Assembly: GCA_043807085.1 (NCBI GenBank)
Contig: JAZDGI010000012.1
Span: 1-53,731 of the forward strand
Length of the DNA stretch: 53,731 nucleotides
DNA from: a bacterium
GTDB lineage: Bacteria > Patescibacteriota > Minisyncoccia > Minisyncoccales > JAZDGI01
Direction: 5' to 3'
Part shown: one piece after another, positions 3,307 through 48,429 of the stretch
How positions within the stretch are numbered: the first letter of the stretch is position 1
Layout: each line of letters opens with the position of its first letter
Notes under the pieces: model-generated
What the model was told of the DNA's origin: nothing
Databases searched by the model: none
What the model saw: the letters and a program-made list of their open reading frames with translations, nothing else
Made by a program: the position numbers and the translations under genes

Positions 3307-3338
3307 TATTTTTGGAAGTTCTTGATAATATGGAAAAG

Positions 3339-4094: not shown

Positions 4095-4104
4095 TCTTTT
4101 TAAA

Positions 4105-4635: not shown

Positions 4636-4636
4636 G

Positions 4637-4678
4637 GTAGGACATACATATATAGATAGTAGGACAGGTTGTCCTACT
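4637..4678. promoter_or_regulatory. Candidate operator: GTAGGACA direct repeat plus 9-bp inverted repeat
   Basis: GTAGGACA at 4637-4644 and 4659-4666. AGTAGGACA-ggt-TGTCCTACT at 4658-4678, 9 nt before the sigma ATG. Confidence 0.5.
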
Positions 4679-4687
4679 TATCAATTT

Positions 4688-5194: not shown

Positions 5195-5207
5195 GAGGTT
5201 TAAGGGG

Positions 5208-5235
5208 TGTAATAGATTGGTCTTTTTTCCGTCAT
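5208..5235 (+). promoter_or_regulatory. Putative ECF-type promoter TGTAAT-N16-CGTCAT upstream of the anti-sigma-like gene
   Basis: TGTAAT 5208-5213 and CGTCAT 5230-5235 with a 16-nt T-rich spacer. Resembles the Bacillus SigW/SigX/SigM-type TG(A/T)AAC-N16-CG(T/A)(A/C) consensus. Confidence 0.5.
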
Positions 5236-5245
5236 AATAAGTGAA

Positions 5246-6001: not shown

Positions 6002-6026
6002 TTGGATGTTTGGCTGTTGTTAGAAT
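5998..6026 (+). promoter_or_regulatory. Sigma70-type promoter of the S-layer-like gene
   Basis: TTGATT (5998-6003), 17 nt, TAGAAT (6021-6026), with an extended -10 TG at 6018-6019. Confidence 0.65.
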
Positions 6027-6163
6027 AATTGAAATTACGGCTAAGAACTGGAAGTGATTTTTTTTGCTTTCCAGACTCTTGGTAAAGGTCGACGTAAAAA
6101 ATAGAATTAAAGATTATTAATTCAAAAAAACAAACAAAATCTACGCGAAAAAGATTAAAATAA

Positions 6164-32366: not shown

Positions 32367-33830
32367 ATGAAGATATGCTTAATCAAGCCGCCGCAAATTA
32401 CGCCATTGGAATGGGGCAGACAAGCCCCTTTGCAGCCTTTGGGTTTGGCTTATTTAGCCGCTGTTTTGGAAAAAGACCATGAGGTGTCTATTCTTGACGC
32501 GCAGGCTGAAGCGTGGGATCAGGTCAAAAAAATCGGCGATAAATATTATTTCGGCTTGCCGCCAGAAGAAATAGAAAAGAAAATTAAAGATCTTAATCCT
32601 GAATTGGTAGGTATTTCCGTTCAGTTTTCAATTGACGAAGAAAGCTCGCTGGCTGTGGCCAAGTTAGTAAAGTCAATCAATAAAAAAATAATAACGGTTT
32701 TGGGCGGCCCGCATTGTTCGGTCAGGCCATTAGATGTCCTTTCAAATCCTGACGTGGATTTCGTCGTTCTGCGCGAAGGCGAAGAAACGTTTTTTGAGCT
32801 AGCCAGGGAATTGGCCGGCGGCAATTACGGGTCTTTGGAAAAAGTTTTGGGCATAGCCTACAAAAAAGACGGCCAGCCGTTCTTTACTCCTCCGAGGCCC
32901 TTTATCCAGAATCTTGATCTGCTTCCGCTTCCGGCCCGGCATTTGCTGCCTATGGAGAAATATTTTCAGGCGGCTGAAAGCGGCCAAGTTCCCAGGGATA
33001 TTTATACTTTCAGTCCGCGTTGGGCGAGCGTCATTACGAGCCGGAGTTGTCCTTACAATTGCGCTTTTTGCAGCGTGCATTTGTCAATGGGCAGAGGCTT
33101 CAGGCCAAGGAGTCCTGAAAATGTCGTTGAGGAAATTGAGCAATTGGTTAGGGATTACCGCATAGAACATATAAATTTTGAAGACGATAATATGACGTTG
33201 GATAAAAAGAGATTTAAAGATATTTGCGATTTGATGGTTGCCAGAAACATCAAGATTACCTGGAGCACGCCCAACGGCATCAGAGCCGACGCCATAGACG
33301 AGGAGCTGGTTCAAAAGATGAAAAAATCCGGATGCAAAAGAGTGGTCGTGTCTCCAGAGTCCGGCGTTCAAAGAGTGGTCAGCCAAATTATAAAAAAGAA
33401 TCTGGATTTAAAGAAAATAGAGGAAGCGGTGGCGCTTTTTAAAAAACACGGGATTGAAGTTGACGCTTCTTTTGTGGTCGGCATGATAGGGGAAACGAAA
33501 AAAGACATTTGGGCCACCATTCGCTACGGCTTAAAGCTCAAACGGCTGGGCATGAGCAAGGCTGGATTCAATATCGCCACGCCGCTCTACGGAACAGAGC
33601 TATACGAGTTGGCCAAACAGAAGAATTATTTAAAAAAAGATATGTCAAGCTCCCTTCTCTCGCCATCCTCCTGCCTTATTGATACGCCCGAATGGACCGG
33701 GCAGGAAGTAAGGGCTTTCTGCGCTTTAGGCAATTGGCTGGTCAATTATAATTTGCGGGAAAAGATTTTAAAAGGCTTTTCCGGATTTCATAAGTATTTT
33801 AAACATATCGGGAAATTATTAAATTTATGA
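32367..33830 (+). CDS. B12-binding radical SAM protein 2
   Basis: QPLGLAYLAA, GGPHCS, REGEE, TSRSCPYNCAFC, FEDDN, PESG, TPLYGT. Confidence 0.9.
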   Translation: MKICLIKPPQITPLEWGRQAPLQPLGLAYLAAVLEKDHEVSILDAQAEAWDQVKKIGDKYYFGLPPEEIEKKIKDLNPELVGISVQFSIDEESSLAVAKLVKSINKKIITVLGGPHCSVRPLDVLSNPDVDFVVLREGEETFFELARELAGGNYGSLEKVLGIAYKKDGQPFFTPPRPFIQNLDLLPLPARHLLPMEKYFQAAESGQVPRDIYTFSPRWASVITSRSCPYNCAFCSVHLSMGRGFRPRSPENVVEEIEQLVRDYRIEHINFEDDNMTLDKKRFKDICDLMVARNIKITWSTPNGIRADAIDEELVQKMKKSGCKRVVVSPESGVQRVVSQIIKKNLDLKKIEEAVALFKKHGIEVDASFVVGMIGETKKDIWATIRYGLKLKRLGMSKAGFNIATPLYGTELYELAKQKNYLKKDMSSSLLSPSSCLIDTPEWTGQEVRAFCALGNWLVNYNLREKILKGFSGFHKYFKHIGKLLNL

Positions 33831-34900
33831 AAAGAGAACTAAAAGAAGCAATCAGTCTTTCTAAAGGAGCTTTGCAAACTTTGGCCTTTAGGGCGTTAAG
33901 AAGGCGGCCAAAATTGCGCGGAATGGTTTACGAAATTACAGATCTTTGCAATTCGCGCTGCCGGCATTGCAGTATTTGGCGACAGAAACCGGCTCCCAAT
34001 CCTTTAACTCCGGCTGAGATTGAAAAGATATTCCAAGACCCGTTTTTCAGAAATTTGAAAGAGGTTATTATCACCGGGGGCGAGCCTATGGTCAGGCCGG
34101 ATTTGGAAGAAATTGTTTTCATCCTGCGAAAATATATTCATCCCGACGCCATTATAAGTTTGAGCACCAACGGCATCCTGCCGGAAAGAGCCATTAAAGC
34201 AATAAAAACATTTTTGGCCGCTGGTATGCGTCTGGTGGCCGGCGTGTCTCTTGACGGCATCGGTCAAAAACATGATGAAATCAGGGGAATTAAGGGCAAC
34301 TTCCAAAAAGTGGATTTCTTGCTGCACGAGTTAAAGCTGCTGCAGAACCAATATAAAGACAGCTTTAGCGTTACAGCGGGATTCACTTTTTCTCCTCTGA
34401 CCTTTGGCTCAATGGAAGAGGTGAAAAATTACGTTGAAAGCTTCGGATTTTATTTTTTGCCCCAGGTCTACGAAGAAGTTTCTTATTACTCAAACGAAAA
34501 CGGCGTTAGGTCCGATAAAAGCGAAGAGCTAATCAAGGCTATCCAGGAGTTCCCGCCTTCTTTTCAAAAGGAAATGATGCTGATGGCGGTCAAGGGTTTG
34601 CCTTTTAAATTTAGCTGCTCCAGCATGAACACATTTTTCCTTTTGCACAGCAACGGCGATATTTCGCCTTGTCTGCGCTACAGCCACTTAAAACTCGGCA
34701 ATCTTAAGAATCAATCAATTGAAGAAATTTGGCAAAGCAAAGCTGTCAAAGACGCGAGAAAAATGATTAAAAACTGCAATAAATGCTACAATACCTGGGC
34801 GACTGGTTGGAGCATGGAAACCTGGTTTCCGCCATTCTTGCCTTTGCTGGCCAAGGTTTATTGCCTGAAGAAAAAATCAGCCAAAAGCAAAAAACAATGA
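33827..34900 (+). CDS. Radical SAM protein with SPASM/twitch-type C-terminus
   Basis: EITDLCNSRCRHC, TGGEP, LSTNG, SLDG; C-terminal CSS...GDISPC...LGNL...CNKC. Confidence 0.88.
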   Translation: MKRELKEAISLSKGALQTLAFRALRRRPKLRGMVYEITDLCNSRCRHCSIWRQKPAPNPLTPAEIEKIFQDPFFRNLKEVIITGGEPMVRPDLEEIVFILRKYIHPDAIISLSTNGILPERAIKAIKTFLAAGMRLVAGVSLDGIGQKHDEIRGIKGNFQKVDFLLHELKLLQNQYKDSFSVTAGFTFSPLTFGSMEEVKNYVESFGFYFLPQVYEEVSYYSNENGVRSDKSEELIKAIQEFPPSFQKEMMLMAVKGLPFKFSCSSMNTFFLLHSNGDISPCLRYSHLKLGNLKNQSIEEIWQSKAVKDARKMIKNCNKCYNTWATGWSMETWFPPFLPLLAKVYCLKKKSAKSKKQ

Positions 34901-36003: not shown

Positions 36004-36862
36004 CTGGAATAATTATAAAGATACGAAAGAGTGTCTGGAATCTTTGGAGAAGATCACTTACCCCAATTTTGAATTGGTGGTGGTTGATAACGGCTCCAGC
36101 GATAATTCCACCAAGAATATCCAGAAAGAATTCCTGCGGCATATTTTTATTTACAATAATGACAACTTGGGCTATGCCGGCGGGATTAACGCCGGCATAA
36201 GGCGGGCTTTTGACAACGGAGCGGATTACATTTTCACTATGAACAACGATATGCTGGCTGACAAAAGTTTTTTGGAGCCCCTGATTGAGGTAATGGAGAA
36301 AGACGAAAAAATAGGTTTGGCTGGACCAGCCACTTATTGTTATCCAGCCAAAGAAAAATTATATACCGCTGGCGAAATGATAAAATACTGGAAGGGGGGA
36401 GTAAGGCAGATCGGTCTGCCAAAAGATGTTGTGGAAGTTGACTGCTTGGGCGGCTGTTTTCTGATTAAAAGAGAGGTGATAGAAAAAATCGGCTATTTTT
36501 ACGAACCTTATTTTCTTGATTTTGAGGAGACCGAATACTGCCTGCGAGCTGCCAGGGCCGGTTTTAAAATAGTCAGCCACCCCAAATCAAAAATCTGGCA
36601 TAAGGTCAGCTTGACTCTGAACAAGATTCCAGCTTCTTCAGCCTACTATTATTACCGGAACAAACTTTTGTTTGTCAAAAGAAACGCCCCTTTTTACATT
36701 AAATATCCTTTTTATTTTTACGGCAGTTTGTATCTTGTTTTAAAAATCGCTGAAAATTTGGCCAAGGGCGACAAAACAATGGCTTTTTCCATTAAAAATT
36801 CTTTGACTGACTTTTGGCAAGGCAATTTTTGTAAAGGCAATCCGATTAAAAAATATGAATAA
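35969..36862 (+). CDS. GT2 family glycosyltransferase
   Basis: VILNWN, VVDNGSSD, NLGYAGGIN, MNND, FEETEYC. Confidence 0.9.
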   Translation: MATPKVSIVILNWNNYKDTKECLESLEKITYPNFELVVVDNGSSDNSTKNIQKEFLRHIFIYNNDNLGYAGGINAGIRRAFDNGADYIFTMNNDMLADKSFLEPLIEVMEKDEKIGLAGPATYCYPAKEKLYTAGEMIKYWKGGVRQIGLPKDVVEVDCLGGCFLIKREVIEKIGYFYEPYFLDFEETEYCLRAARAGFKIVSHPKSKIWHKVSLTLNKIPASSAYYYYRNKLLFVKRNAPFYIKYPFYFYGSLYLVLKIAENLAKGDKTMAFSIKNSLTDFWQGNFCKGNPIKKYE

Positions 36863-37871
36863 CCAGCCGCTAAAAATTTTAATTATCCACACCTGGGGCA
36901 TCGGAGATCTGATTATGTTCACGCCGGCCTTAAGATTGATCAGACAAAATTTCCATGAAGCCCAAATTGATATCTTGATCACTGATAAGCCGGTTTCAGC
37001 CCAGGTACTGGAGGAAAACAGGACGGTTAACAAAATTATTACTTTTTATTGGAAAGAAGGAAGTTTTTTTGAAAAATTAAAACTGATTTCTGAATTAAGA
37101 AAAGAGAAATACGACTGGGCCGTTGTCACCAGCTGGACCAATCAATTCAAGGGCGGGTTGCTGGCATATTTTATCGGCGCCAAAAACCGGATAGGAGTTT
37201 ATAAAAGATTCAAATCTCCTTTTTATACCAAGCAGGCGCCGGGAAAGGAAAGCCGGCCTCGGAGAGAGACTAATCTGGCTCTGGTCAGTCTTATGGGAAT
37301 TAAAGCCGGGGAAAGGCCTGAAGAATTTTTTGAATTCAGCGCCGAAGACGCGGAGTTTGCCAGGGAGTTTGTTCAAAAATCGCCAGGTCCGTTAGATAAA
37401 GTTTTAATCGGCTTTCATCCCGGAGCCGAACCTGTTCATCGGTATTTGCTTTGGCCCAAGGATTATTTTGTGGCGCTGGCGAAAAAAATAACAGAGAATT
37501 ATAAAAACGCGGTTTTGCTGGTTTTTGCCGGTCCCGGGGAAAAAGATATTTGTGATCAAATACTGGCCGAAGTCAAGGAAAATATTCTTTTAGCCAGCGA
37601 TCTGTCCTTAAAGCAGGTGGCGGCTTTAATAGACGTTTGCCGGGTTTTTGTGGCTTCAGACAGCGGCTTGGCCCAAGTAGCTTCAGCCACCAGAACAAAT
37701 TTGATCACGATTTTCGGGCCGTCGGAATCGCGCTTGTTCGCTGGCCAAGGTCCGAGAGTCAAGGTTTTTCAGGCTGAATGTCATCATCCTTATCAGGAAA
37801 ACCGCCAGCACGCCTGCTTAAAAAAAATAACGCCGGAAATGGTTTTTCATGAGCTTAAAAAATTTTTATGA
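36855..37871 (+). CDS. GT9 family glycosyltransferase (heptosyltransferase-like)
   Basis: GIGDLIMFTP, FHPGA...WP, SLKQVAALI, SDSGLAQVA, IFGPS. Confidence 0.88.
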   Translation: MNNQPLKILIIHTWGIGDLIMFTPALRLIRQNFHEAQIDILITDKPVSAQVLEENRTVNKIITFYWKEGSFFEKLKLISELRKEKYDWAVVTSWTNQFKGGLLAYFIGAKNRIGVYKRFKSPFYTKQAPGKESRPRRETNLALVSLMGIKAGERPEEFFEFSAEDAEFAREFVQKSPGPLDKVLIGFHPGAEPVHRYLLWPKDYFVALAKKITENYKNAVLLVFAGPGEKDICDQILAEVKENILLASDLSLKQVAALIDVCRVFVASDSGLAQVASATRTNLITIFGPSESRLFAGQGPRVKVFQAECHHPYQENRQHACLKKITPEMVFHELKKFL

Positions 37872-39136
37872 AGATAATTTTAATAATTCCGCCGTCTCCT
37901 TTTTTAGGAGACCAAAAAAGGAACCCTTCTCTGGGAGTAATGTATATAGCCGCTTTTTTGGAGAAGCAGGGTTATGATGTTGGCATATCCGATTTGAGAA
38001 ATTTGAAGGAGGAATATTGGCTGGATAAAGCGCCAGTAGCCGATGTTTACGGCCTGACCGCGGCTACGCCGGAATATCCTTTGGCGGTAAAAATAGCCCG
38101 TCATTTGAAATCGCGGGACAAAAAATGCTTGATTGTTTTAGGCGGCATTCACGCGACAGCGGACAAAAATAATTTAGACCCTGTTTTTGATTCAGTTATT
38201 ACCGGCGAGGGAGAACTGGCAATGCTGGATTTGCTGAAAGATTTTGAAAAAGGGTCAAGTAAAAAATATTATCAGGGATCTTTTATAGAAAATCTGGACG
38301 AATTGCCTTTTCCAGCTCGGCATTTGTTGCCCCTTGACTCTGTTTTTTCAGATAAACTTTGCATTAAAGGGGAAATGGCGACTTCCATTATCGCCAGCCG
38401 AGGATGCCCTTATAATTGTTCTTTTTGCGCTTCTAAGGCTATGTGGGGCAGAAAAGTTAGATTTCGGAGTCCGGACAACGTCATTGCCGAGATCAAGGAA
38501 GTTATTGAAAAATATAATGTCCGCCAATTCAGGTTTCAGGACGACACCATAGCCGCCAATAGAGACTGGCTGTTTGAGCTTGCAGAGAAAATGAAGCCCT
38601 TAAATATTGTCTGGCGCGCCAACAACAGAGTCAACTGTTCCCAGAAAGATATTCTTTTGGCTATGAAAGAGGCCGGCTGTTATGAAATTGATTACGGTAT
38701 AGAGAGCCTGTCGGAAAACGTGCTGAAAATAAACAATAAATTGATAAAAGTAGAAGATATTTACGCCGCGGTCAAAACCGCCAAGGATGTCGGGCTGAAG
38801 ATCAGATTATTTTTTATGATCGGTTTGCCTGGCCAGAACAAAGACGAAGGCGATAAAATAATAAAATTTATTGAGGAGGTAAGGCCGGACGGAGTTGACG
38901 TGTCAACCTTGATACCTTTTCCGGGCTGCGATATTTACAACGATCCCTCAAAATACAACATAGAAATTTTAAACAGAGATTTCAGCTCTTACGTTTTTAC
39001 TCTCGGGCTGTACGGAGACGAAGCGGAAAAAGACTTTATTTTTAAGCACGATATTTTAAGCAACGAAGAATTAAAGCAAGAAAGGCGGAAAATCCTTGAA
39101 TATATCAGGAATTACAACTTGACATTAAACAAATAA
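37868..39136 (+). CDS. B12-binding radical SAM protein 3
   Basis: PSLGVMYIAA, GGIHAT, GEGE, ASRGCPYNCSFC, FQDD, GIES, MIGLPG. Confidence 0.9.
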   Translation: MKIILIIPPSPFLGDQKRNPSLGVMYIAAFLEKQGYDVGISDLRNLKEEYWLDKAPVADVYGLTAATPEYPLAVKIARHLKSRDKKCLIVLGGIHATADKNNLDPVFDSVITGEGELAMLDLLKDFEKGSSKKYYQGSFIENLDELPFPARHLLPLDSVFSDKLCIKGEMATSIIASRGCPYNCSFCASKAMWGRKVRFRSPDNVIAEIKEVIEKYNVRQFRFQDDTIAANRDWLFELAEKMKPLNIVWRANNRVNCSQKDILLAMKEAGCYEIDYGIESLSENVLKINNKLIKVEDIYAAVKTAKDVGLKIRLFFMIGLPGQNKDEGDKIIKFIEEVRPDGVDVSTLIPFPGCDIYNDPSKYNIEILNRDFSSYVFTLGLYGDEAEKDFIFKHDILSNEELKQERRKILEYIRNYNLTLNK

Positions 39137-39156
39137 GTATGTATTATTAAACGAGT

Positions 39157-39729
39157 ATGCAGGAAGAAATCAGAGCGCAATTCAACCAGAATATTGAGCT
39201 TCACAAAAGGTCTTTGGAAGGGCTGGTTCCCAAAATCGTTCAAGCCGCTGATTTGATTATCAAGGCTTACGAGGCTGGAAACAAATTATTGCTTTGCGGC
39301 AACGGAGGTTCGGCCGCCGATTGCCAGCATTTGGCCGCTGAATTTGTCGGCCGCTTCAAAAAAGAAAGAAAGGGCCTGCCAGCCATTGCCTTGACAACAG
39401 ACACCTCTATAATGACTTCGGTGGCTAATGACTATTGGTATGATTTTCTGTTTGCCAGGCAGGTTGAGGCCCTAGGCCAAAAAGGAGATGTCTTGCTGGC
39501 TATTTCCACCAGCGGAAACTCCACCAATATCGTCAGAGCGGTTGAAATGGCGAATTTTGAGGGATTAAAAACAATCGGGCTTTTGGGCGGGGCCGACGGC
39601 GGGAAATTGAAAGATTTGGTGCAGGTTCCCCTGATTGTTCCCTTTGACGGTTCAGATAGGGTGCAGGAAGTCCATATTTTAATCGGCCATATCATCTGCA
39701 GTTTAATAGATTCTCATTTTTCTAAATAA
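39157..39729 (+). CDS. gmhA: Phosphoheptose isomerase
   Basis: CGNGGSAADCQHLAAE, ALTTDTS, ISTSGNS, RVQEVH. Confidence 0.95.
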   Translation: MQEEIRAQFNQNIELHKRSLEGLVPKIVQAADLIIKAYEAGNKLLLCGNGGSAADCQHLAAEFVGRFKKERKGLPAIALTTDTSIMTSVANDYWYDFLFARQVEALGQKGDVLLAISTSGNSTNIVRAVEMANFEGLKTIGLLGGADGGKLKDLVQVPLIVPFDGSDRVQEVHILIGHIICSLIDSHFSK

Positions 39730-39733
39730 TTAT

Positions 39734-40714
39734 ATGGAACAATTTTTAAATATCGTTAAAAATTTCAAAAATCTAAAGATTTTAGTGGTGGGCGATGTTA
39801 TGCTTGACGAGTACGTCAAGGGAGATGTCAATCGGATTTCTCCGGAAGCTCCCATTCCCGTTTTAGACATTAAAGACATTTTTTATACCCCGGGCGGAGC
39901 GGCTAATACGGCTTGCAACGCGAGTTCTCTGGGAGGGAAAGTTTTTCTGGCCGGAGTCATAGGCGGGGAGGATAAAGGCAAACTTTTGACAAAACTTTTA
40001 AGGGAAAAAGGAATTAATACCGACGGAGTTTTTATTGAAGAAAACCGAAAGACCACAACCAAAACCAGGGCCGTGGCTAGGTCCCAGCAGCTGGTCCGTC
40101 TTGACTGGGAAGACAAAAATCCTATTTTGCCGGAGACCGAACAAAAAATCATTAATTTTGTTTCAGCCAGCGTCAAAGACGTCAACGCACTTATAATTTC
40201 CGATTACGCCAAGGGAGTCATCACTCCAGTCTTGGCCAGGAAACTTTTGGATATTGCTTTTCATGCTAATATCCAATGCTTTGTTGATCCAAAGGGAGAG
40301 GATTATTCAAAATATCGGGGATGCGGCATTGTTACGCCCAATGAGAAAGAGCTGGCTCAAGCTTTAAAGCTGGAGATTAAAGACGACCAAACCGTTATCC
40401 AGGCCGGGAAAATGCTTTTGGCTCATGTGATGTGCGAAAACGTGCTGGTGAAAAGAGGAGGAAAAGGAATGATGCTTTTTGAGAAAAACGGAAATATAAT
40501 TTTATCTCCGGCCACTAATAAAAGCGCTGTTGATGTTTCCGGAGCCGGCGATACGGCTATTGCCGCTTTTGTTCTGGCGCGGACAGGCGGCGCCAGCTTG
40601 AAAGAAGCAATGGATATTGCCAGCTGCGCCTGCGGCATTGAAGTCGGCAAAGCCGGCACAGCCGTTGTCTTGCCCGAAGAGCTGGAAGAAAGCATTAAAA
40701 CCAATTTGTCTTAA
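39734..40714 (+). CDS. hldE: Heptose 7-phosphate kinase (stand-alone HldE kinase domain, RfaE1/HldA-type)
   Basis: VGDVMLD, RISPEAPIP, GGAANTA, SDYAKG, DVSGAGDT. Confidence 0.88.
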   Translation: MEQFLNIVKNFKNLKILVVGDVMLDEYVKGDVNRISPEAPIPVLDIKDIFYTPGGAANTACNASSLGGKVFLAGVIGGEDKGKLLTKLLREKGINTDGVFIEENRKTTTKTRAVARSQQLVRLDWEDKNPILPETEQKIINFVSASVKDVNALIISDYAKGVITPVLARKLLDIAFHANIQCFVDPKGEDYSKYRGCGIVTPNEKELAQALKLEIKDDQTVIQAGKMLLAHVMCENVLVKRGGKGMMLFEKNGNIILSPATNKSAVDVSGAGDTAIAAFVLARTGGASLKEAMDIASCACGIEVGKAGTAVVLPEELEESIKTNLS

Positions 40715-41721
40715 TGGCCAGTCAAAAAATAAAAAACCGGAAAGAAATCGTCCGGATTGTTAAAAATCTTAAAAAACAAGGCAAGAAAATCGTAACCTAT
40801 AACGGCTCTTTTGATCTTTTGCATTCGGGACACATTACTTCTCTGGAAGAAGCGAAAAGCCGCGGCGACATACTTATTGTTCTTTTGAACAGCGACCAGT
40901 CGGTGAAATCATACAAGGGCCCGACGCGGCCGATAATTCCCGAAGGCGAAAGAGCCAGAATGCTGGCGGCTTTAGCCTGCGTGGATTATCTTGTTCTTTT
41001 TGACGAGATAAATCCGAAAAAGATATTGTCTGAAATAAAATCCAATGTCCACTGCAACGGCGCTGATTGGGGCAGAGACTGCGTGGAAAGGGAGGCAGTG
41101 GAGAAAAACAACGGAATAATATATATTTTAAAATGGGCGCCCGGTTTTTCAACGACCAGATTGATTGAAAGCGTCCAGAAAGCCTGCGCCAGCCAAGAAG
41201 TTAAAGCGGTTTTTTTTGACCGAGACGGCACAATAAATTATAACCGGCCCGAGTATCTCCACAAAATAGAAGATTTCAGGTTTGTTAAGGGCGCGATACC
41301 GGCTCTTTTGAAATTAAGCAAAACAGATTACAAGATTATCATTATCACCAATCAATCGGGCATTGGCCGGGGATATTTCAAAGAAAGCGATTTTCAAAAG
41401 CTGACCAAATGGCTGATTAGCTATCTTAAAAAACGGAAAATCAGGATTGATAGAGTTTATCATTGCCCCCATGATCCGGAAGCAGGCTGTTCCTGCCGGA
41501 AGCCGGCAATTGGCATGCTGACGAAGGCGGTCAAAGAGCTCGGCGTCAGTTTAAATCATAGCTGGATTATTGGCGACGACGAAAGGGACGTCATTATGGG
41601 CAGGGAGGCGAACGTCAAAACAATAAAACTCGGAGAAAAAATGAAGAAAAGTTTCAGGCTTCAGCCTAATTTTTACGCTAAGAATTTAGGCGAAGCGGTT
41701 AAAATTATTTGCGCCAAATGA
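40714..41721 (+). CDS. Fusion of heptose-1-phosphate adenylyltransferase (HldE C-terminal/HldC-type) and GmhB heptose bisphosphate phosphatase
   Basis: N-terminal GSFDLLHSGH, NSDQSV..YKGPTRP, STT; C-terminal FDRDGTIN, TNQSG, CPH...CSCRKP, IGD. Confidence 0.88.
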   Translation: MASQKIKNRKEIVRIVKNLKKQGKKIVTYNGSFDLLHSGHITSLEEAKSRGDILIVLLNSDQSVKSYKGPTRPIIPEGERARMLAALACVDYLVLFDEINPKKILSEIKSNVHCNGADWGRDCVEREAVEKNNGIIYILKWAPGFSTTRLIESVQKACASQEVKAVFFDRDGTINYNRPEYLHKIEDFRFVKGAIPALLKLSKTDYKIIIITNQSGIGRGYFKESDFQKLTKWLISYLKKRKIRIDRVYHCPHDPEAGCSCRKPAIGMLTKAVKELGVSLNHSWIIGDDERDVIMGREANVKTIKLGEKMKKSFRLQPNFYAKNLGEAVKIICAK

Positions 41722-43055
41722 AAATCAAAGGAGACAAAAGCTATATTTTCCACCGGCGGCTGGACTATGCCTATCCGATTATTACTCATGGAAAAGGAAT
41801 TTACCTTTATGACGAGGAGGGTAAACGTTATATTGATGCTTGCGGCGGGGCTATTGTGGCGAATTTAGGGCACGGCTTAAAAGGAATCGCCAGGGAAATC
41901 GGAAAATTAGCCGCAAGGTTTAATTATCTTCACGGCTCCCAGTTTACGACCAGAGTAATGGAAGATTATGCCCGGAATTTGGTAAAAACAGCCCCCAAGG
42001 GATTAAATAAAGTTTTTTTTGTTTCCGGCGGTTCGGAAGCAGTAGAATCGGCGATAAAATTGGCCAGGCAATACCATTATGACGCCGGAAGCAAATCAAA
42101 ATATAAGATAATCTGCCGGCAGCCGGCTTATCACGGCTCAACGATTTTAACTTTATCTTTGTCCAGCAAGCCGGGTATGAGAAAACCGCAGGAGCCTTTT
42201 ATTCTGAAATTTCCGACGATTCCCGCTCCCTTTTGCTACCGGTGTCCTTTTGGCAGAGCTTATCCTGGCTGCGGTTTAAAATGCGCCAAAGCATTAGAAG
42301 AGACTATTAAAAAAGAAGGGCCAGAAACCGTTTGCGCTTTTATCGCAGAGCCGGTAATCGGAGCTTCTATCGGAGCTGTGGTGCCGCCTTTTGAATATCT
42401 TTCCGCTGTCAAAAAGATTTGCGCCAAATACAACGTGCTTTTGATTTCAGATGAAGTAATGTCCGGGTTCGGCCGGACCGGAAAATGGTTTGCCTCGCAG
42501 CATTTCAATTGTGCGCCGGATATCGCGGTAATAGGCAAGGGGATTGGCGGCGGTTTTGTGCCTCTGGCAGCCGTCTTTTGCCAGGAAAAGATTTTAACGA
42601 CTATCAAAAAGGGGAGTGGAAATTTTATTCACGGCTTTACTTTTGAAAACAATCCTTTTACAACCGGTGTGGGCCAGTTAGTCTTAAGGTACGTTAGAAA
42701 ACGCCAGCTCGTTGAAAAATGCGCCAAAATGGGAAAATATCTTATGACACAACTTAAAACATTAGATAAAATTAGCATTGTTGGCGATGTCCGCGGGCTG
42801 GGCCTTTTGACAGCCGTGGAGTTTGTTCAAAACAAAAAAACAAAAAAGCCTTTTTCGCGTGAAAACCATCTGGCGGAAAAAATCGTCCAGGCGGCGATGA
42901 GAAAAGGTCTGAATTTGTATTTTGCCGTTGGCTTTGAAAGGGGTCAGGGAGACGCGGTAATGGTCGCTCCGCCCCTGACGGTGACCAAAAAAGAAATTGA
43001 TAAAATTGTCGCTATTTTTAAAGAAGCAATAAATGAAGGAGCATCAAATTCATAA
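41718..43055 (+). CDS. Class III PLP aminotransferase
   Basis: YIDACGG, SGGSEAVE, YHG, AEPV, DEVMSGFGRTG, GKG, RGLGL. ATG at 41718. Confidence 0.92.
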   Translation: MKIKGDKSYIFHRRLDYAYPIITHGKGIYLYDEEGKRYIDACGGAIVANLGHGLKGIAREIGKLAARFNYLHGSQFTTRVMEDYARNLVKTAPKGLNKVFFVSGGSEAVESAIKLARQYHYDAGSKSKYKIICRQPAYHGSTILTLSLSSKPGMRKPQEPFILKFPTIPAPFCYRCPFGRAYPGCGLKCAKALEETIKKEGPETVCAFIAEPVIGASIGAVVPPFEYLSAVKKICAKYNVLLISDEVMSGFGRTGKWFASQHFNCAPDIAVIGKGIGGGFVPLAAVFCQEKILTTIKKGSGNFIHGFTFENNPFTTGVGQLVLRYVRKRQLVEKCAKMGKYLMTQLKTLDKISIVGDVRGLGLLTAVEFVQNKKTKKPFSRENHLAEKIVQAAMRKGLNLYFAVGFERGQGDAVMVAPPLTVTKKEIDKIVAIFKEAINEGASNS

Positions 43056-44226
43056 ATTTTCCAATAAACTCCTGCAAAGATCTGTTTTTCCTCATTTGAA
43101 AAAATATATTAGCTGGCAGCTGGGCCAAGATAAATTTGAATATGAAGCAAACGGCTATTCTTTCGCTCCCTTGTCCATAAACCTTGACCTGACGACTGCC
43201 TGCAACAACCAATGCCCCTTTTGCATAGACAAGCTTGTTTTAAATACCGGAAAAATTTTGGACTTTAATTATTTATCCGGCCTGATAAAAAAATGGAGTA
43301 AAGACGGCTTAAAATCGGTCATCATCCTGGGAGGAGGGGAGCCGACCATTTATCCTGATTTTGAAAAAGTAATTCAGCTTTTGAAAGAACACGGCCTGCA
43401 GATAGGAATTGTGACTAACGGGCTTCAGATGCAGAGAATAGAAAACGTCGGCGATTTATTCCGAGAAAAAGATTGGATCAGGCTTTCTCTTGACGCCGGA
43501 ACTGACGAAACTTTTCAGAGGCTTCATCTACCGCGCCTGAAAATAACTCTGGAAAAAATTTTGGATGATGTTTCCAGACTAAAGAAAAAAAATCCCAAAC
43601 TGCAGATTGGTTTTTCCTTTCTGGTAATACCGGGCAGCGTTTGCTCTGGCATTAAGCTTGCCGATAATCTTGGCGAGATTTTTTCGGCCGCTCAAAAAGC
43701 CAAAGAGTCGGGCTTCTCTTACCTTTCTTTGAAACCTTTTATAAATTTTGACATCTCCCGCCAGACCGATTTTCCAGCCGATCGGCTTGAGGAATTAAAA
43801 AGTCAGGTGAAAAAAGCCAAAGAGGAGTGCGATGATGAAAATTTTAAAGTGATGGAAAGCGTCAATCTTTTAGCTCTGCTTGAGGCTAAAGATCTGGAAA
43901 ACCAGGAAAAATGCAAAACCTGCCATTACCAGTTTTTCCGGCTGGCGGTTATGCCTGACGGAGTTTTTATTTGTCCTTTGTGGCGGGGAGTAAAACTCAA
44001 AGAAGCCCGCATTCAAGACGCCAACAGAGAAATAAACGACGAGTATTTTTCAGAGCTTCATAAAAACAGAGTCAGAGCGATAAAAGAATTTAACGCCCAG
44101 AAAATTTGCGCTCATTCTTTTTGCCTGCCCAATTCTTCAAACCAAATGATAGACGAACTGATCAAGAATAAGCAGGTCAGAGAAAAATTGGGGCCAATAG
44201 ACGATTTCAACGATTATTTTTTATGA
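43033..44226 (+). CDS. Radical SAM protein with twitch-like C-terminal Cys cluster
   Basis: DLTTACNNQCPFC, GGGEP, VTNG, SLDAG; C-terminal CKTC...DGVFIC. Confidence 0.85.
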   Translation: MKEHQIHKFSNKLLQRSVFPHLKKYISWQLGQDKFEYEANGYSFAPLSINLDLTTACNNQCPFCIDKLVLNTGKILDFNYLSGLIKKWSKDGLKSVIILGGGEPTIYPDFEKVIQLLKEHGLQIGIVTNGLQMQRIENVGDLFREKDWIRLSLDAGTDETFQRLHLPRLKITLEKILDDVSRLKKKNPKLQIGFSFLVIPGSVCSGIKLADNLGEIFSAAQKAKESGFSYLSLKPFINFDISRQTDFPADRLEELKSQVKKAKEECDDENFKVMESVNLLALLEAKDLENQEKCKTCHYQFFRLAVMPDGVFICPLWRGVKLKEARIQDANREINDEYFSELHKNRVRAIKEFNAQKICAHSFCLPNSSNQMIDELIKNKQVREKLGPIDDFNDYFL

Positions 44227-45251
44227 TTTCAGTAATTATTCCCTGCCGCAACGAGCAAAATTATATCGCCCAATGCCTGGACTCAATCGTTTCCCAGAAT
44301 TTTCCCAAAGAGAATCTGGAAGTTTTGTTGGTGGACGGCAATTCGCAGGACAAGACAAAAGAAATTGTCCAAGACTACATTCAGAAATATCCCTTTTTGA
44401 GGCTTTTGGAAAATCCCAGAAAATTTGCGGCGTTTGGATTGAATATCGGAATAAAAAAAGCCAGCGGCGAAATTATCGTCAGGATGGACGCCCACGCAGC
44501 TTACCAAAAAGATTATGTCTCAAAATGCGTAAAATATCTGAAAGAATACGAGAAGGCTGATAATGTCGGCGGAGCGATCAAGACTTTGCCAGCCGAAAAT
44601 ACTTTGGCCGCCAAAGCTATTGCCATTATTTTATCCGGTCGGCTGGGGGCGGCCAGCTCTTTCAGGCTTGGTTCAGATAAGGTTATGGAAGTTGATACGG
44701 TTTTTGGCGGCTGTTTTAGGAAAAAGATTTTTGACAAAATCGGTTTTTTTGACGAGAGAATGGCTAGGGCCCAGGATATTGAATTCAATAAAAGGCTGAT
44801 AAGGTCTGGCGGAAAAATTATCTTGGCTCCGGATATTTTGGCTGTTTATTATCCGGAATCAACTCTTTTGGGCTTTTGGAAACATAATTTTCAAGACGGA
44901 TTCTGGGTTATTTACCCCTTAAAATTCGGCGTAAGGTATTTCTCTTTGAGGCACCTGCTTCCTTTGGCCTTGACCGGAGCAGTTCTCTTTAGCTTGTTTT
45001 TAAGCCTTTTTTTATTTTTGGGAAAAGTCCTGTTTGTTCTGGCCTTCGGCCCTTATCTTTTTTTCGTTTCCCTGCTTTGCCTGCAGATTTCGTTCAAAAG
45101 AAAGGAGGGATTAAAGATTTTTCCTTATTTGATATTGGCTGTTTTTTGTCGGCATTTTGGCTACGGTATAGGCTCCTTATTTGGCATGATAAAAATACTC
45201 AAAGAGAAGTTGCATGAGGTCGGACATCATGCAAAACCTTATACGAAATAA
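44223..45251 (+). CDS. GT2 glycosyltransferase with C-terminal TM helices (ExoA-like)
   Basis: VIIPCRNE, VDGNSQD, RMDAH, QDIEFNKR, three hydrophobic C-terminal segments. Confidence 0.88.
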   Translation: MISVIIPCRNEQNYIAQCLDSIVSQNFPKENLEVLLVDGNSQDKTKEIVQDYIQKYPFLRLLENPRKFAAFGLNIGIKKASGEIIVRMDAHAAYQKDYVSKCVKYLKEYEKADNVGGAIKTLPAENTLAAKAIAIILSGRLGAASSFRLGSDKVMEVDTVFGGCFRKKIFDKIGFFDERMARAQDIEFNKRLIRSGGKIILAPDILAVYYPESTLLGFWKHNFQDGFWVIYPLKFGVRYFSLRHLLPLALTGAVLFSLFLSLFLFLGKVLFVLAFGPYLFFVSLLCLQISFKRKEGLKIFPYLILAVFCRHFGYGIGSLFGMIKILKEKLHEVGHHAKPYTK

Positions 45252-45255
45252 TTTT

Positions 45256-46005
45256 ATGGAAGAAAGAAAAGAAGTTGAAATCAAGCACTATGATCAAAAG
45301 GCTGAAAAGATTTCCGAAGAATATTTTTTTGAGAAGTTTAAGTCGCCGGAATTGGCAAGCTTTAAGTTTGTTTACGGGCTTTTAAAAAAGCGCTGCCAAG
45401 ATAAAATAGTTTTGGATTACGGCTGCGGCAATGGCGTTCATGCTCTTGCCATAGCCAAAATGGGCGCGCGAAAAGTTATGGCCATTGATTTGTCGGAAAA
45501 GTCGCTGGAAATTGCCAGACGCCTGGCTCCCAATGTTGAGTTTTTGGTTATGGATTGCGAAAAAATGGATTTTCCGAATAATTATTTTGACGTTATTTTT
45601 GACGGCGGCATTTTTTCTTCTCTGGACCTGAAATTAGCTTATCCGGAATTGGCCAGGGTTTTAAAGCCGCAGGGCTTATTGATTGGTATTGAGACTTTTG
45701 GCCATAATCCCATTGCCAATCTATATAGAAAGTTTAATAAATTGGCCGGTAAAAGAACGAGCTGGGCGGTAAACCATATTTTGCAGGAAAAAGATTTCAA
45801 ACTTGCTGAAAATTATTTCCAGAAAATTGAGGCTGAATATTTTCATTTAATCTCGTGGCTAGCTTTTCCTTTTTTAAAGTTGCCTGGCGGAAAAATTCTT
45901 TTAAGAATGTCTGAAACGGCTGATAAAATTTTTCTTTCCATTCCTTTTTTCAAAAAATACGCCTTTAAAGTAGTGTTCGTTTTTTATGGCAAAAAGATTA
46001 TTTGA
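45256..46005 (+). CDS. Class I SAM-dependent methyltransferase
   Basis: VLDYGCGNG, AIDLS, MDCE...FDVI. ATG at 45256. Confidence 0.85.
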   Translation: MEERKEVEIKHYDQKAEKISEEYFFEKFKSPELASFKFVYGLLKKRCQDKIVLDYGCGNGVHALAIAKMGARKVMAIDLSEKSLEIARRLAPNVEFLVMDCEKMDFPNNYFDVIFDGGIFSSLDLKLAYPELARVLKPQGLLIGIETFGHNPIANLYRKFNKLAGKRTSWAVNHILQEKDFKLAENYFQKIEAEYFHLISWLAFPFLKLPGGKILLRMSETADKIFLSIPFFKKYAFKVVFVFYGKKII

Positions 46006-46579
46006 TGTTATTTTTTCGTTTTTGGGGCTGGCTGTTGTCTGGCCGGTTTTGATTTTGCTGGCGGTTTTAATTAAAAAAGAATCCACGGGGTCGGTTTTTT
46101 ATTGCGGCCAGAGAGCGGGCAAAGGAGGCAGGCCGTTTAAAATGCTTAAGTTTCGGAGCATGGTTGTAGACGCTGATAAAATCGGCGGACCTTCAACGTC
46201 TGGCGACGATCCTCGGCTGACTAAAACCGGCAAATTTTTAAGGAGACACAATCTGGATGAGCTTCCTCAACTGATTAATATATTGAAGGGAGAAATGAGT
46301 TTTGTCGGGCCAAGACCCGAGGTGCTTTCAGAAGTGGAAACTTACGACGAAGAAACTAAAAGGATTATTTTGTCCGTAAGGCCCGGGCTGACCGATTTGG
46401 CTACGTTGGAAGATGTTCATGAAGAAGAAATTTTAAAAGGAAGCCCGGATCCTCACGAAGCTTATTGCCGGTTAATCAGGCCTAAAAAACTGGCTTTAGC
46501 CAAAGAGTACGTCCAGAAGAGATCCTTCTGGCTGGATATCAAAATAATTCTCAAAACTCTTCGCGCCGCCATTTTTTAA
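45986..46579 (+). CDS. Initiating phosphoglycosyltransferase (Bac_transf; PglC/WcaJ C-terminal type)
   Basis: KRLFD, FKMLKFRSM, DPRLT..G.FLR...LDELPQL.N...GEMSFVGPRP. Confidence 0.93.
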   Translation: MAKRLFDVIFSFLGLAVVWPVLILLAVLIKKESTGSVFYCGQRAGKGGRPFKMLKFRSMVVDADKIGGPSTSGDDPRLTKTGKFLRRHNLDELPQLINILKGEMSFVGPRPEVLSEVETYDEETKRIILSVRPGLTDLATLEDVHEEEILKGSPDPHEAYCRLIRPKKLALAKEYVQKRSFWLDIKIILKTLRAAIF

Positions 46580-46592
46580 AAGGTTTCGGTAA

Positions 46593-46620
46593 TTGATTTT
46601 TAGGGAAATTCAGTTATAAT
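46593..46620 (+). promoter_or_regulatory. Internal sigma70-type promoter before the transketolase genes (possibly leaderless)
   Basis: TTGATT (46593-46598), 16 nt, TATAAT (46615-46620); ATG at 46628. Confidence 0.5.
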
Positions 46621-46627
46621 GGCGAAT

Positions 46628-47434
46628 ATGGCGCATTATCTGGCGGATGAAATCAAGGGAATAAGGCGAGATATTTTGGAAATACTTTACAGGACAAAAA
46701 GCCCTCATATCGGCTCTTGTTTTTCAATGGTTGAATTATTGACGGCTTTGTATTTTAAGATATTGAAGATTGATCCCAAAAACCCGGCCGACCCAAATCG
46801 GGACAGGTTTGTTTTGAGCAAGGGGCATGGCGCGCCGGCTCTTTACGCGGTTCTGGCAAAAAGAGGGTTTATCGGCAAAGAAGCTTTGGCTGGTTTTGCC
46901 AAAGACGGCGGAACATTGGAGCAGCATCCGAACAGAAATGTTTCTCAAGGAATTGAAATTACTTCCGGCTCTTTAGGCCATGGATTGTCAATTGCCGCGG
47001 GCATGGCTCTGGCCGGAAAGTACGACAAAGCTAATTGGCGGGTTTTTGCTTTTTCCAGCGACGGCGACCTGGAAGAAGGTTCTTCTTGGGAAGCGATAAT
47101 GTTCGCCGGTCATCATAAATTGGATAATTTAATAGCTATTGTTGATTATAACAAGCTTACGGCCATGGGCAGGATTAAAGAAATTTTAGACTTAGATCCT
47201 TTGGCGGAAAAGTGGCGGGCTTTTGACTGGGAAGTCAAGGAAGTTGATGGCCACAATATGGAAGAAATCATCAATGCTTTGGAAAATATTCCTTTCAAGA
47301 ATGGGAAGCCGAGCTGTTTGATCTCTCATACTATAAAGGGCAAGGGTGTTTCTTTTATGGAAAACGACCCGAAGTGGCATGACAAATGCCCTGACGAGCA
47401 GGAATATGAAAAAGCCGCAGAAGAATTAAAATGA
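46628..47434 (+). CDS. Transketolase, N-terminal (ThDP-binding) subunit
   Basis: PHIG, DRFVLSKGH, GSLGHG, SDGDLEEG...N, HTIKGKG. ATG 46628 preferred over 46619. Confidence 0.92.
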   Translation: MAHYLADEIKGIRRDILEILYRTKSPHIGSCFSMVELLTALYFKILKIDPKNPADPNRDRFVLSKGHGAPALYAVLAKRGFIGKEALAGFAKDGGTLEQHPNRNVSQGIEITSGSLGHGLSIAAGMALAGKYDKANWRVFAFSSDGDLEEGSSWEAIMFAGHHKLDNLIAIVDYNKLTAMGRIKEILDLDPLAEKWRAFDWEVKEVDGHNMEEIINALENIPFKNGKPSCLISHTIKGKGVSFMENDPKWHDKCPDEQEYEKAAEELK

Positions 47435-47439
47435 TAGGC

Positions 47440-47490
47440 GATGAGGGATAAACCCTCATCTAAGATATTTCGTTTTCGCAAAGCGAAAAC
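47440..47490. repeat. Two adjacent perfect 8-bp inverted repeats between the transketolase halves
   Basis: GATGAGGG-ataaa-CCCTCATC (47440-47460) and GTTTTCGC-aaa-GCGAAAAC (47472-47490). Confidence 0.75.
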
Positions 47491-47494
47491 TCAT

Positions 47495-48421
47495 ATGAGA
47501 AAGGTTTTTTTTAAGACATTAGAAGATATCGCTAAAGAAGACAAAAGCATTTTTTTGCTGGCCGCTGACTTGGGCGTGAAGTTTTTCCAGAATTTTAAGG
47601 ATATTGATCCCAAGAGAGCGATTAACGTCGGCGTGGCCGAGCAAAATATGATTGGCGTTGCCGCGGGATTGGCAATGTCAGGCAAGAATGTTTACTGCTA
47701 TTCCATAATTCCTTTTTTGACAATGCGGGCTTTTGAGCAGGTTCGGGTTGATCTTTGCGGCCATAATTTAAACGTAAAATTGCTGGGAGCTGGCGGGGGA
47801 TTGGTTTACGGCCTGGAAGGAATGACTCATCATGCTCTTGAAGACATTGCCATAATGAGGTCTTTGCCCAATATGACTGTGACAGCTCCGGGCGATGCCA
47901 AAGAAGCTGAAGCTTTGGCCATAGCTTCAGTAAATTTTTCCGGGCCTCTTTACGTTCGTTTTGGCCGCGATATAGATCCAGTTGTTCATAAGAATAATCC
48001 GGAGTTTAAAATCGGCAAGGGAATTGTTATAAATGAAGGAAAGGACATCTGTCTGATTGCAACCGGCAGTATGCTGTACCCGGCTGCAACTGTTCAGGAA
48101 ATTTTAAAGGAAAAGGGATTTGCTCCCGGCCTTGTCAGCATGCACACTATTAAGCCGATTGACGAGGAACTGACAAAAGACTGCGCTAAAAAATATCAAG
48201 CCATTTTTACCCTTGAAGAACACAGCGTGATTGGCGGCTTGGGTTCGGCGGTAGCTGAAGTTCTGGCGGAATCTAATTATGGAAAAACCTTCAAAAGAAT
48301 CGGTATTGCCGATCGTTATACTTTTCCTATTATCGGATCGCCTGACTATTTAAAGGAAAGGGCTGGGCTGTCGCCGGGAAAAATAGTCGAAACTATATTA
48401 AAAGATTTAAATAGGCGATGA
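47495..48421 (+). CDS. Transketolase, C-terminal subunit
   Basis: ADLG, NVGVAEQNM, RAFEQ, THHALED, GPLYVRFG, EEHSVIGGLG. ATG at 47495. Confidence 0.92.
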   Translation: MRKVFFKTLEDIAKEDKSIFLLAADLGVKFFQNFKDIDPKRAINVGVAEQNMIGVAAGLAMSGKNVYCYSIIPFLTMRAFEQVRVDLCGHNLNVKLLGAGGGLVYGLEGMTHHALEDIAIMRSLPNMTVTAPGDAKEAEALAIASVNFSGPLYVRFGRDIDPVVHKNNPEFKIGKGIVINEGKDICLIATGSMLYPAATVQEILKEKGFAPGLVSMHTIKPIDEELTKDCAKKYQAIFTLEEHSVIGGLGSAVAEVLAESNYGKTFKRIGIADRYTFPIIGSPDYLKERAGLSPGKIVETILKDLNRR

Positions 48422-48429
48422 TTCGTTAT

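Follow-up and report, generated by a model that had tools for sequence, protein, structure and literature searches.

A Radical SAM Enzyme Family Associated with ADP-Heptose Genes and a Candidate Amino-Heptose Cassette in a Patescibacterial Surface-Glycan Locus

Which sugar does a bacterium of a lineage without lipopolysaccharide (LPS) make with a set of ADP-heptose genes, and what do an adjoining aminotransferase and radical S-adenosylmethionine (SAM) enzyme contribute to it? This question is raised by a patescibacterial contig (JAZDGI010000012.1, contig C12 of its assembly), the 53.7 kb of which were analyzed as a whole and are referred to below as the window. The window is throughout one surface-glycan locus on the + strand and accounts for about a tenth of the DNA of its host, the assembly of which comprises 529 kb in 20 contigs and is estimated to be 94% complete. 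The reading that we favor, with a probability of roughly 0.55, is that the radical SAM enzyme (rSAM) makes a heptose carbonyl, that a class III (omega-type) pyridoxal phosphate (PLP) aminotransferase (AT3) transaminates it, and that a family 9 glycosyltransferase (GT9) transfers the amino-heptose to the surface glycan.

The Heptose Genes of the Window

The block in question occupies positions 36855-44226 of the + strand and consists of seven coupled genes in the order GT9, B12-rSAM (a B12-binding, class B radical SAM enzyme), GmhA, HldA, HldC-GmhB, AT3, and rSAM, just as the original prediction had read it. The junctions measure -8, -4, +20, +4, -1, -13, and -23 nt, with a further -4 nt to the next gene; five of the seven are overlaps (1 to 23 nt) and two are short gaps (20 and 4 nt). 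The longest open reading frame (ORF) of AT3 starts from a TTG at 41709, and its start is most likely the ATG at 41718, which turns the junction of -13 nt into one of -4 nt (an ATGA with the upstream stop codon).

GmhA (sedoheptulose-7-phosphate isomerase, 39157-39729) and HldA (D-glycero-beta-D-manno-heptose-7-phosphate kinase, 39734-40714, with a GAGD motif) exceed the cutoffs of their family models (TIGR00441, 216.7 bits for a cutoff of 209.45, and TIGR02198, 355.9 bits for a cutoff of 345). The next gene (40714-41721) encodes a fusion of HldC with GmhB, with the adenylyltransferase at residues about 15-156, the heptose-1,7-bisphosphate 7-phosphatase at residues about 162-312, and the motifs HSGH and DRDGT; its best matches, TIGR02199 (150.3 bits, cutoff 181.5) and NF006506 (172.4, cutoff 178), are slightly below the cutoffs, as is TIGR00213 (148.3, cutoff 149.6). 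As assigned by these family models and motifs, GmhA, HldA, GmhB, and HldC would convert sedoheptulose-7-phosphate into ADP-D-glycero-beta-D-manno-heptose, and this heptose would stay in the D,D form because there is no HldD. The lack of HldD, to which the original prediction had pointed in the window, extends to the 94%-complete genome, in which the best TIGR02197 match reaches 60 bits (cutoff 274.6). The host lineage is also without LPS, as had been assumed, because LpxC is absent: no PF03331 match was found in the same genome, and among 14 reference genomes that served as controls, the expected 4 gave a match.

GT9 (36855-37871) is heptosyltransferase-like (PF01075, 98.6 bits, cutoff 22) and is presumed to be the transferase for the modified heptose. 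Its top NCBIfam match is heptosyltransferase II (TIGR02195, 111.8 bits, cutoff 134.6), and no heptosyltransferase equivalog cutoff is reached. AT3 (41709/41718-43055; PF00202, 320.6 bits) carries the catalytic lysine motif DEVMSGFGRTGK (the GRTGK lysine motif). It stays below the cutoffs of the named equivalogs (310.5 bits with a cutoff of 405 for BioA, TIGR00508; 496.9 with a cutoff of 535 for PRK06917), and groups by sequence with omega-amine, gamma-aminobutyrate (GABA), and putrescine:pyruvate transaminases and with BioA-like enzymes. The nearest solved structure is 3i4j, which is uncharacterized, followed by amine, GABA, and putrescine transaminases. The last gene of the block, rSAM (43033-44226; PF04055, 65.3 bits), is recognizable by its CNNQCPFC and GGGEP motifs and by a set of C-terminal cysteines.

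Conservation of the Cassette

Six of the seven genes, namely GT9, GmhA, HldA, HldC-GmhB, AT3, and rSAM, form a real unit, which we read as one functional cassette. All of the cassette genes are single-copy in the host genome, and they recur jointly in other Patescibacteria, in Atribacterota, and in a gammaproteobacterium. Such an arrangement goes far beyond what chance would produce: at least six further loci, spread over several phyla, have this gene set with its order unchanged or nearly so. Locus L001 (Pacebacteria, 2997-9185) has GT9-GmhA-HldA-HldC/GmhB-AT3-rSAM as a standalone block among housekeeping genes, flanked at one end by genes for ribosomal proteins and CTP synthase and at the other by tyrosine-recombinase/integrase, gltX, and mur/fts genes, close to a murG-ftsW-murD-mraY cluster. 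In L007 (5128-11179) the same six genes stand alone between carB and two NUDIX hydrolase genes, and neither a flippase nor a priming transferase is encoded near the standalone cassettes of L001 and L007. L009 (Saccharibacteria) has GT9-HldA-HldC/GmhB-AT3-rSAM, without GmhA, and then continues with the series GT2-MT-PGT...TktN-TktC-DegT-PglF-Wzy (MT, methyltransferase; PGT, phosphoglycosyl transferase) as in the window. The order is GmhA-HldA-HldC/GmhB-AT3-rSAM-GT9 in L092 (Atribacterota) and AT3-rSAM-GT9 in L093 and L044, the latter from the gammaproteobacterium. The original prediction had made its case depend on the aminotransferase and rSAM keeping company with heptose genes in other genomes, which they do, together with GT9, in L001, L007, L009, and L092; the same HldC-GmhB fusion is found in these four loci.

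The association can also be followed from its single members. AT3 orthologues (57-73% identity) adjoin rSAM, GT9, or both, and in a reciprocal search from AT3 about two dozen top matches share contigs with rSAM matches, as judged from agreement in the lengths of their longest contigs. An AT3 paralogue of 50% identity has an unrelated setting, next to a BKACE gene, and thereby sets the boundary of the orthologues. Across phyla, AT3 is 60-68% identical, as against 38-53% for rSAM and 22-50% for GT9. A GT9 gene is present in nine of nine AT3-type loci, where its presence was called with a family hidden Markov model (HMM) together with Pfam, the GT9s of L001, L007, and L094 being divergent; the GT9 of the window is 50% identical to the one that immediately precedes HldA in L009.

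Within the phylum of the window, an even sample of 401 genomes gave rSAM in only one, the window's own, so that the rSAM/AT3 extension is rare and patchy there. The cassette was probably acquired by horizontal transfer, as suggested by this patchy distribution and by the integrase gene next to the standalone cassette of L001. Of the 401 genomes, 36 encode HldA-type kinases; most of these genomes belong to two families and none to the window's own order or class. Heptose is thus uncommon in this LPS-less phylum and not unique to the host, contrary to what the original prediction had implied for a lineage of this kind.

Alternation of Partners Beside the Radical SAM Enzyme

The relatives of rSAM in the protein database number more than 1,300, none of which has a functional name. 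A scan with one genome per species placed them in at least 588 species, among them members of Thermodesulfobacteriota, Planctomycetota, Gammaproteobacteria, Acidobacteriota, Omnitrophota, Patescibacteria, Nanoarchaeota, and Woesearchaeota. All ORFs within 4 kb of rSAM were clustered in 86 non-redundant loci, with no probes chosen beforehand, and the partners were counted with family HMMs. The recurrent neighbors are a Gfo/Idh/MocA oxidoreductase of about 314 aa directly upstream; GT9, which at least 42 loci have no more than 2.5 kb away; HldE (17 loci); and a kinase of the Kdo/WaaP family (Kdo, 3-deoxy-D-manno-oct-2-ulosonic acid) in about 31 of the 86 loci, which is an approximate cluster count, as the single-linkage cluster HMM also matched rSAM ORFs.

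The immediate partner of rSAM is the oxidoreductase in 61 loci and an aminotransferase in 10 (8 AT3 and 2 DegT), and in no locus are both found; 15 have neither, several of which are cut by contig ends. The two kinds of partner are therefore mutually exclusive beside rSAM (Fisher p = 9e-7). In a maximum-likelihood tree of rSAM, the members partnered with AT3 fall into at least three separately supported clades: one of Patescibacteria, which is sister to a DegT-partnered clade; one of L044, L092, and L093, which is sister to a large oxidoreductase clade of Thermodesulfobacteriota; and L068, which lies within an oxidoreductase clade of Planctomycetota and Gammaproteobacteria. The partner has thus switched at least three times on the tree. 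In both partner classes, 64 columns of the rSAM alignment reach 90% conservation or more, and all seven cysteines, H298, and numerous polar residues are among them; no convergent changes specific to the aminotransferase class were found, the nine differing columns being conservative or tracking phylogeny. The simplest reading is that one conserved rSAM chemistry gives a product that is consumed by either a reductase or an aminotransferase and that must then be a carbonyl. Since the minimal cassettes of L001 and L007 hold no other redox enzyme that could make the substrate of the transaminase, rSAM itself would be the source of this carbonyl. The proposal that rSAM oxidizes before the aminotransferase aminates is thereby supported as the most parsimonious one.

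In diderms, members of the rSAM family reside in LPS inner-core operons, as follows from the recurrent neighbors and from the gene order of L079 (8067-12722), which is lipid-A acyltransferase, oxidoreductase, rSAM, GT9, and a standalone HldC-like gene. In Thermodesulfobacteriota, Planctomycetota, and Gammaproteobacteria, the rSAM operon constitutes a hitherto undescribed module for tailoring the LPS inner core, and it often includes the Kdo/WaaP-family kinase. When compared with the Protein Data Bank (PDB), the oxidoreductase partner gave only weak matches, in the Rossmann region, to inositol dehydrogenases, from which no function was inferred. In L038 (Nanoarchaeota) and L050 (Woesearchaeota), rSAM occurs with GT9 and HldC-like genes and with neither an oxidoreductase nor an aminotransferase; one would not expect ultra-small archaea, here of the DPANN group, to have a heptose module of the bacterial type.

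Fold and Auxiliary Cluster of the Radical SAM Enzyme

In an alignment of 57 rSAM sequences, the cluster motif C57-x3-C61-x2-C64 and the GGGEP motif are invariant, as are the C-terminal residues C297, H298, C314, C359, and C364, and no further invariant cysteine, which would be the fifth of the auxiliary region, is present. The AlphaFold2 model built from the 57 sequences (predicted local distance difference test 91.5, predicted TM-score 0.92) places C297, C314, C359, and C364 so that they flank a beta-hairpin and a helix, which is the predicted layout of a twitch-type auxiliary cluster. The closest folds in the PDB are the cytosylglucuronate decarboxylase BlsE and the TDP-sugar deaminase/dehydrogenase DesII (TMq 0.57-0.61), followed by SuiB, SkfB, viperin-like enzymes, anSME, and MoaA. 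Compared with the PDB by sequence, the rSAM profile matches only generic radical SAM cores, the DesII model TIGR04426 gives 24.9 bits for a cutoff of 450, and there is no PF13186 match. The label of a BtrN-type or twitch-like family, under which the original prediction had placed rSAM, is not supported, as NF033640 reaches 28.6 bits for a cutoff of 170 and BtrN does not appear among the 50 best structural matches; with the best TMq values at 0.57-0.61, the rSAM family is a distinct one.

The putative auxiliary cluster nevertheless bears on the reaction. A fully ligated auxiliary cluster with four cysteines is the situation in BtrN, a two-electron oxidant, and in other radical SAM enzymes that carry out two-electron oxidations, whereas the redox-neutral MoaA leaves one iron site open (PMC9012708). 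By analogy, the four invariant auxiliary cysteines of rSAM would favor dehydrogenation over dehydration or epimerization. Four rival explanations were ranked: dehydration first, next epimerization, with the aminotransferase unrelated to it, third a methylation of the heptose that depends on B12, and last a reaction order like that of DesI/DesII.

In the first of them, rSAM would be a radical dehydratase like AprD4 or viperin and would act on a vicinal diol (e.g., C6/C7 in the side chain) to give a deoxy-keto- or deoxy-aldehydo-heptose, which AT3 would turn into an amino-dideoxy-heptose and the reductase loci into a deoxy-heptose. The interchange of aminotransferase and reductase would be accounted for in this way too, the pairing of rSAM with an NAD(P)H reductase in 61 of the 86 loci mirrors AprD4/AprD3 (PMC5461906), and viperin-like dehydratases are among the structural matches of rSAM. 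However, dehydration is redox-neutral and needs no electron-accepting, fully ligated cluster such as the four invariant auxiliary cysteines of rSAM imply (PMC9012708), and the only match to the AprD4 model in the block (NF033070, 75.8 bits for a cutoff of 500) is B12-rSAM and not rSAM. We consider dehydration an unlikely, though the strongest, rival.

Epimerization is more doubtful still. Here rSAM would be a heptose epimerase of the NeoN/HygY/AbmJ type, with AT3 serving a separate purpose, e.g., the supply of an amine substituent with which the glycan is decorated. Sugar epimerases of the radical SAM type have precedents (AbmJ, cited in PMC9978623; NeoN, PMC10991966), most members of the rSAM family function without an aminotransferase, and HldD is missing from 11 of 15 rSAM-bearing genomes. 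An epimerase would need neither partner, yet a reductase or an aminotransferase, mutually exclusive, adjoins rSAM in 71 of the 86 loci; nor does rSAM have an invariant fifth cysteine that could act as hydrogen-atom donor. Moreover, four genomes carry HldD and rSAM together, and the AT3 orthologues are tied to GT9 and rSAM in standalone cassettes that hold no other substrate pathway. As a substitute for HldD in particular, rSAM was rejected, given that 4 of the 15 rSAM-bearing genomes own a bona fide HldD and that HldD is absent from most controls too.

Proposed Pathway

In the favored pathway, which begins with the ADP-heptose described above, rSAM would take a hydrogen atom off one of the carbinol carbons of the heptose, with the ADP-sugar as the probable substrate, and the second electron would pass to the four-cysteine auxiliary cluster, giving a keto- or aldehydo-heptose. 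The nearest folds, BlsE, DesII, and viperin, all use nucleotide-linked substrates, which we count in favor of this pathway. AT3 would then transaminate the carbonyl to give an ADP-amino-deoxy-heptose, and GT9 would move the amino-heptose onto the lipid-linked repeat unit of the surrounding Wzx/Wzy locus. In most other lineages, the Gfo/Idh/MocA reductase would reduce the same carbonyl, and the LPS core would receive a heptose that is epimeric or modified in some other way. Taken more broadly, and more tentatively, the window may belong to a widespread oxygen-independent branch of ADP-heptose metabolism, in which a new rSAM family makes the carbonyl and interchangeable partners turn it into different donor sugars for GT9, the reductase for the LPS cores of anaerobic diderms and an aminotransferase, class III or DegT, in Patescibacteria, Atribacterota, and further lineages, with an amino-heptose as the outcome in the window.

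Several points weigh against rSAM-dependent oxidation followed by transamination. The chief misfit to an obligate relay from rSAM to AT3 is a marine lineage known from metagenomes (L094/L095), which has an AT3 orthologue of 59% identity directly upstream of GT9, with no rSAM within 9 kb; the surroundings hold sulfotransferase-like genes, family 2 glycosyltransferases (GT2s), and an HldA-like kinase, and the lineage is abundant, its protein being indexed in 58 collection blocks. This implies that the marine AT3 obtains its substrate from an alternative oxidase or that rSAM sits elsewhere in the genome. Most members of the rSAM family are without an aminotransferase, amination being a minority outcome. 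The TM-scores of rSAM to known sugar radical SAM enzymes are only about 0.6, with BtrN outside the top 50, and dehydratase chemistry of the AprD4 type would by analogy yield a carbonyl equally. The substrate of rSAM may be ADP-heptose, a heptose phosphate, or an already transferred sugar. The only transketolase-like genes, a possible source of sedoheptulose-7-phosphate, belong to the glycan backbone and not to the cassette. Full-text searches of the literature yielded no biochemical study of any member of the rSAM family.

Nor did these searches yield a paper in which a radical SAM enzyme is connected to ADP-heptose or GT9, the sole match being the work on septacidin (PMC9978623), and in the searchable literature no radical SAM enzyme is tied to heptose or LPS-core biosynthesis, which gives weight to a family of at least 588 species. 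The AT3 variant constrains the whole family, because the product of rSAM must bear a carbonyl, and it brings a direct test of the family within reach, with six genes and a substrate that is commercially accessible. If it is real, the amino-heptose would be a new building block of the bacterial surface, the first known in a cell-envelope glycan, and this in a genome of symbiont size. The cassette would provide the host-attachment surface of ultra-small bacteria with elaborate anaerobic sugar chemistry that was probably acquired horizontally. Because ADP-heptose is an innate-immune signal, its alteration by such enzymes could affect the sensing of bacteria.

The B12-Dependent Radical SAM Enzyme and the Glycan Backbone

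The original prediction went one step further and had the heptose possibly C-methylated, a step that would fall to B12-rSAM (37868-39136; PF02310 and PF04055, no NCBIfam equivalog reached), so that the complete scheme would lead to a methylated amino-heptose in the manner of GenK/GenQ/GenB1. The position of the gene, between GT9 and GmhA and overlapping GT9 by 4 nt, lends itself to this idea, as do the gentamicin precedent (PMC5461906) and more distant B12-rSAM homologues that lie a few kb from rSAM in 4 of 10 aminotransferase-type loci (the window, L003, L011, and L068). The close relatives of B12-rSAM (up to 75% identity) nevertheless form a separate family, on contigs other than those of AT3 or rSAM. 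Its orthologues in L103 (75% identity) and L104 (65%) lie among nucleoside diphosphate (NDP)-hexose dehydratases and epimerases, a thiamine diphosphate enzyme, DegT, and GT2, in loci without heptose, GT9, AT3, or rSAM genes. Conversely, B12-rSAM is absent from the cassette loci L001, L007, L009, and L092, including the nearest syntenic heptose locus, L009, where GT9 directly abuts HldA with no B12-rSAM between them. An archaeal homologue of 738 aa (P0336) is fused to an NAD-dependent NDP-sugar epimerase/dehydratase domain, which hints that the B12-rSAM family acts on NDP-(deoxy)hexoses, and two further B12-dependent radical SAM enzymes of the window serve other sugars. Methylation of the heptose by B12-rSAM is therefore improbable, about as much so as epimerization; although it lies inside the block, B12-rSAM belongs, from its gene neighborhoods, to the hexose-tailoring backbone of the locus and not to the heptose cassette.

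This backbone is recognizable in L103, which has the series B12-rSAM-GT2-GT2b-MT-PGT-TktN-TktC-DegT-PglF. The corresponding genes of the window, assigned by Pfam and all on the + strand, follow rSAM as GT2 (44223-45251), a methyltransferase (45214-46005), a small phosphoglycosyl transferase (45986-46579), a split transketolase-like pair, TktN/TktC (46619-48421), a DegT aminotransferase (48418-49569), and a PglF-like dehydratase (49559-51427). The window thus resembles a backbone of the L103 type, around whose B12-rSAM the heptose cassette has been placed. DegT is 89% identical between L103 (13808-14935) and the window, whereas the flanking backbone genes are just 36-59% identical, which points to strong constraint or recent exchange.

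The split TktN/TktC pair is the sole transketolase-like gene pair in the 529-kb assembly, and has counterparts in L103 (12499-13780) and L009 (14864-16562). It may be a housekeeping enzyme, and hence a source of sedoheptulose-7-phosphate, or a sugar-tailoring two-carbon transferase. Its candidacy as a dedicated supplier of sedoheptulose-7-phosphate to the cassette is unsupported, the series PGT-TktN-TktC-DegT-PglF being present in L103 without heptose genes.

Relation to Known Systems

Oxidation with subsequent transamination or reduction is a chemical logic known from other systems; what is new here is the enzyme family, along with the proposed substrate and product. The nearest parallel in chemistry is that of BtrN and BtrS in the 2-deoxystreptamine pathway of butirosin, in which a radical SAM enzyme with a four-cysteine second cluster oxidizes a carbinol in an O2-independent two-electron reaction and an adjacent PLP enzyme transaminates the ketone (PMC9012708). 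The butirosin substrate is an aminocyclitol and the aminotransferase is of the DegT type, whereas a nucleotide heptose and a class III enzyme are proposed for the window; in addition, the rSAM family, for which BtrN is outside the top 50 folds, has its own conserved partners, GT9 and the ADP-heptose genes. The deoxygenation of C3' in apramycin by AprD4 and AprD3 resembles the oxidoreductase loci, in that a sugar carbonyl made by the radical SAM enzyme is used by an NAD(P)H reductase, as in 61 of the 86 rSAM loci (PMC5461906). AprD4 differs in having a B12-like N-terminal domain, in belonging to another radical SAM family, and in acting on a pseudodisaccharide, and the window has an aminotransferase in place of the reductase. 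In the GenK/GenQ/GenB1 system of gentamicin and in related routes of 6'-amination, a class III aminotransferase acts on an oxidized exocyclic sugar carbon, and a class B radical SAM enzyme methylates the same carbon (PMC5461906); the oxidant there is a flavin dehydrogenase, the substrates are pseudo-oligosaccharides, and the B12-rSAM of the window is not linked to the cassette.

With respect to the sugar, the closest system is the L-heptosamine of septacidin (SepI, the epimerases SepJ/SepA, and SepG), an amino-heptose derived from the ADP-heptose pathway by oxidation and then transamination in a bacterium that has no LPS (PMC9978623). In that secondary metabolite, the 4'-amino-heptose is made after transfer of the heptose to adenine (PMC9978623). 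SepI is FAD-dependent and SepG is DegT/DesI-like, in contrast to the enzymes proposed here, and the septacidin system has no rSAM, no GT9, and no surface glycan. The canonical pathway of the LPS inner core (GmhA, HldE or HldA/HldC, GmhB, HldD, and WaaC/WaaF) shares GmhA, HldA, HldC, GmhB, and a GT9 with the window, which differs by the lack of HldD, lipid A, and the Kdo machinery, by the fusion of HldC to GmhB and not to HldA, and by two extra tailoring enzymes; the acceptor in the window is presumably a Wzx/Wzy lipid-linked glycan.

DesI/DesII (desosamine) and BlsE (blasticidin S) resemble the system of the window in that DesII and BlsE are the best rSAM folds and handle nucleotide-linked substrates, and in that the DesII gene adjoins an aminotransferase gene; their sequence identity to rSAM is 14-16%, and the order of the DesI and DesII reactions is the reverse of that proposed here. 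DesII is also able to act as a dehydrogenase. A DesI/DesII-like order in the window, in which AT3 would aminate a keto-heptose and rSAM would then deaminate it radically, for a net deoxygenation, is very improbable despite the DesII fold (TMq 0.60) and the corresponding gene arrangement, because the minimal cassettes hold no enzyme to make the keto substrate of AT3, because a reductase could not then take the place of the aminotransferase as it does among these mutually exclusive partners, and because of the low DesII-model score given above.

Other Genes of the Glycan Locus

Two long ORFs of the glycan locus, at 6164-10702 (1512 aa) and 28221-29714 (497 aa), are without any Pfam match. Upstream of the heptose block, the locus encodes three more radical SAM enzymes, two of them B12-binding and one of the SPASM type (25662-27131, 32367-33830, and 33827-34900), the genes of which adjoin DegT, C-methyltransferase, and GDP-mannose-dehydratase-like genes. 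Together with B12-rSAM and rSAM, five radical SAM enzymes are encoded in one glycan locus of a very small genome.

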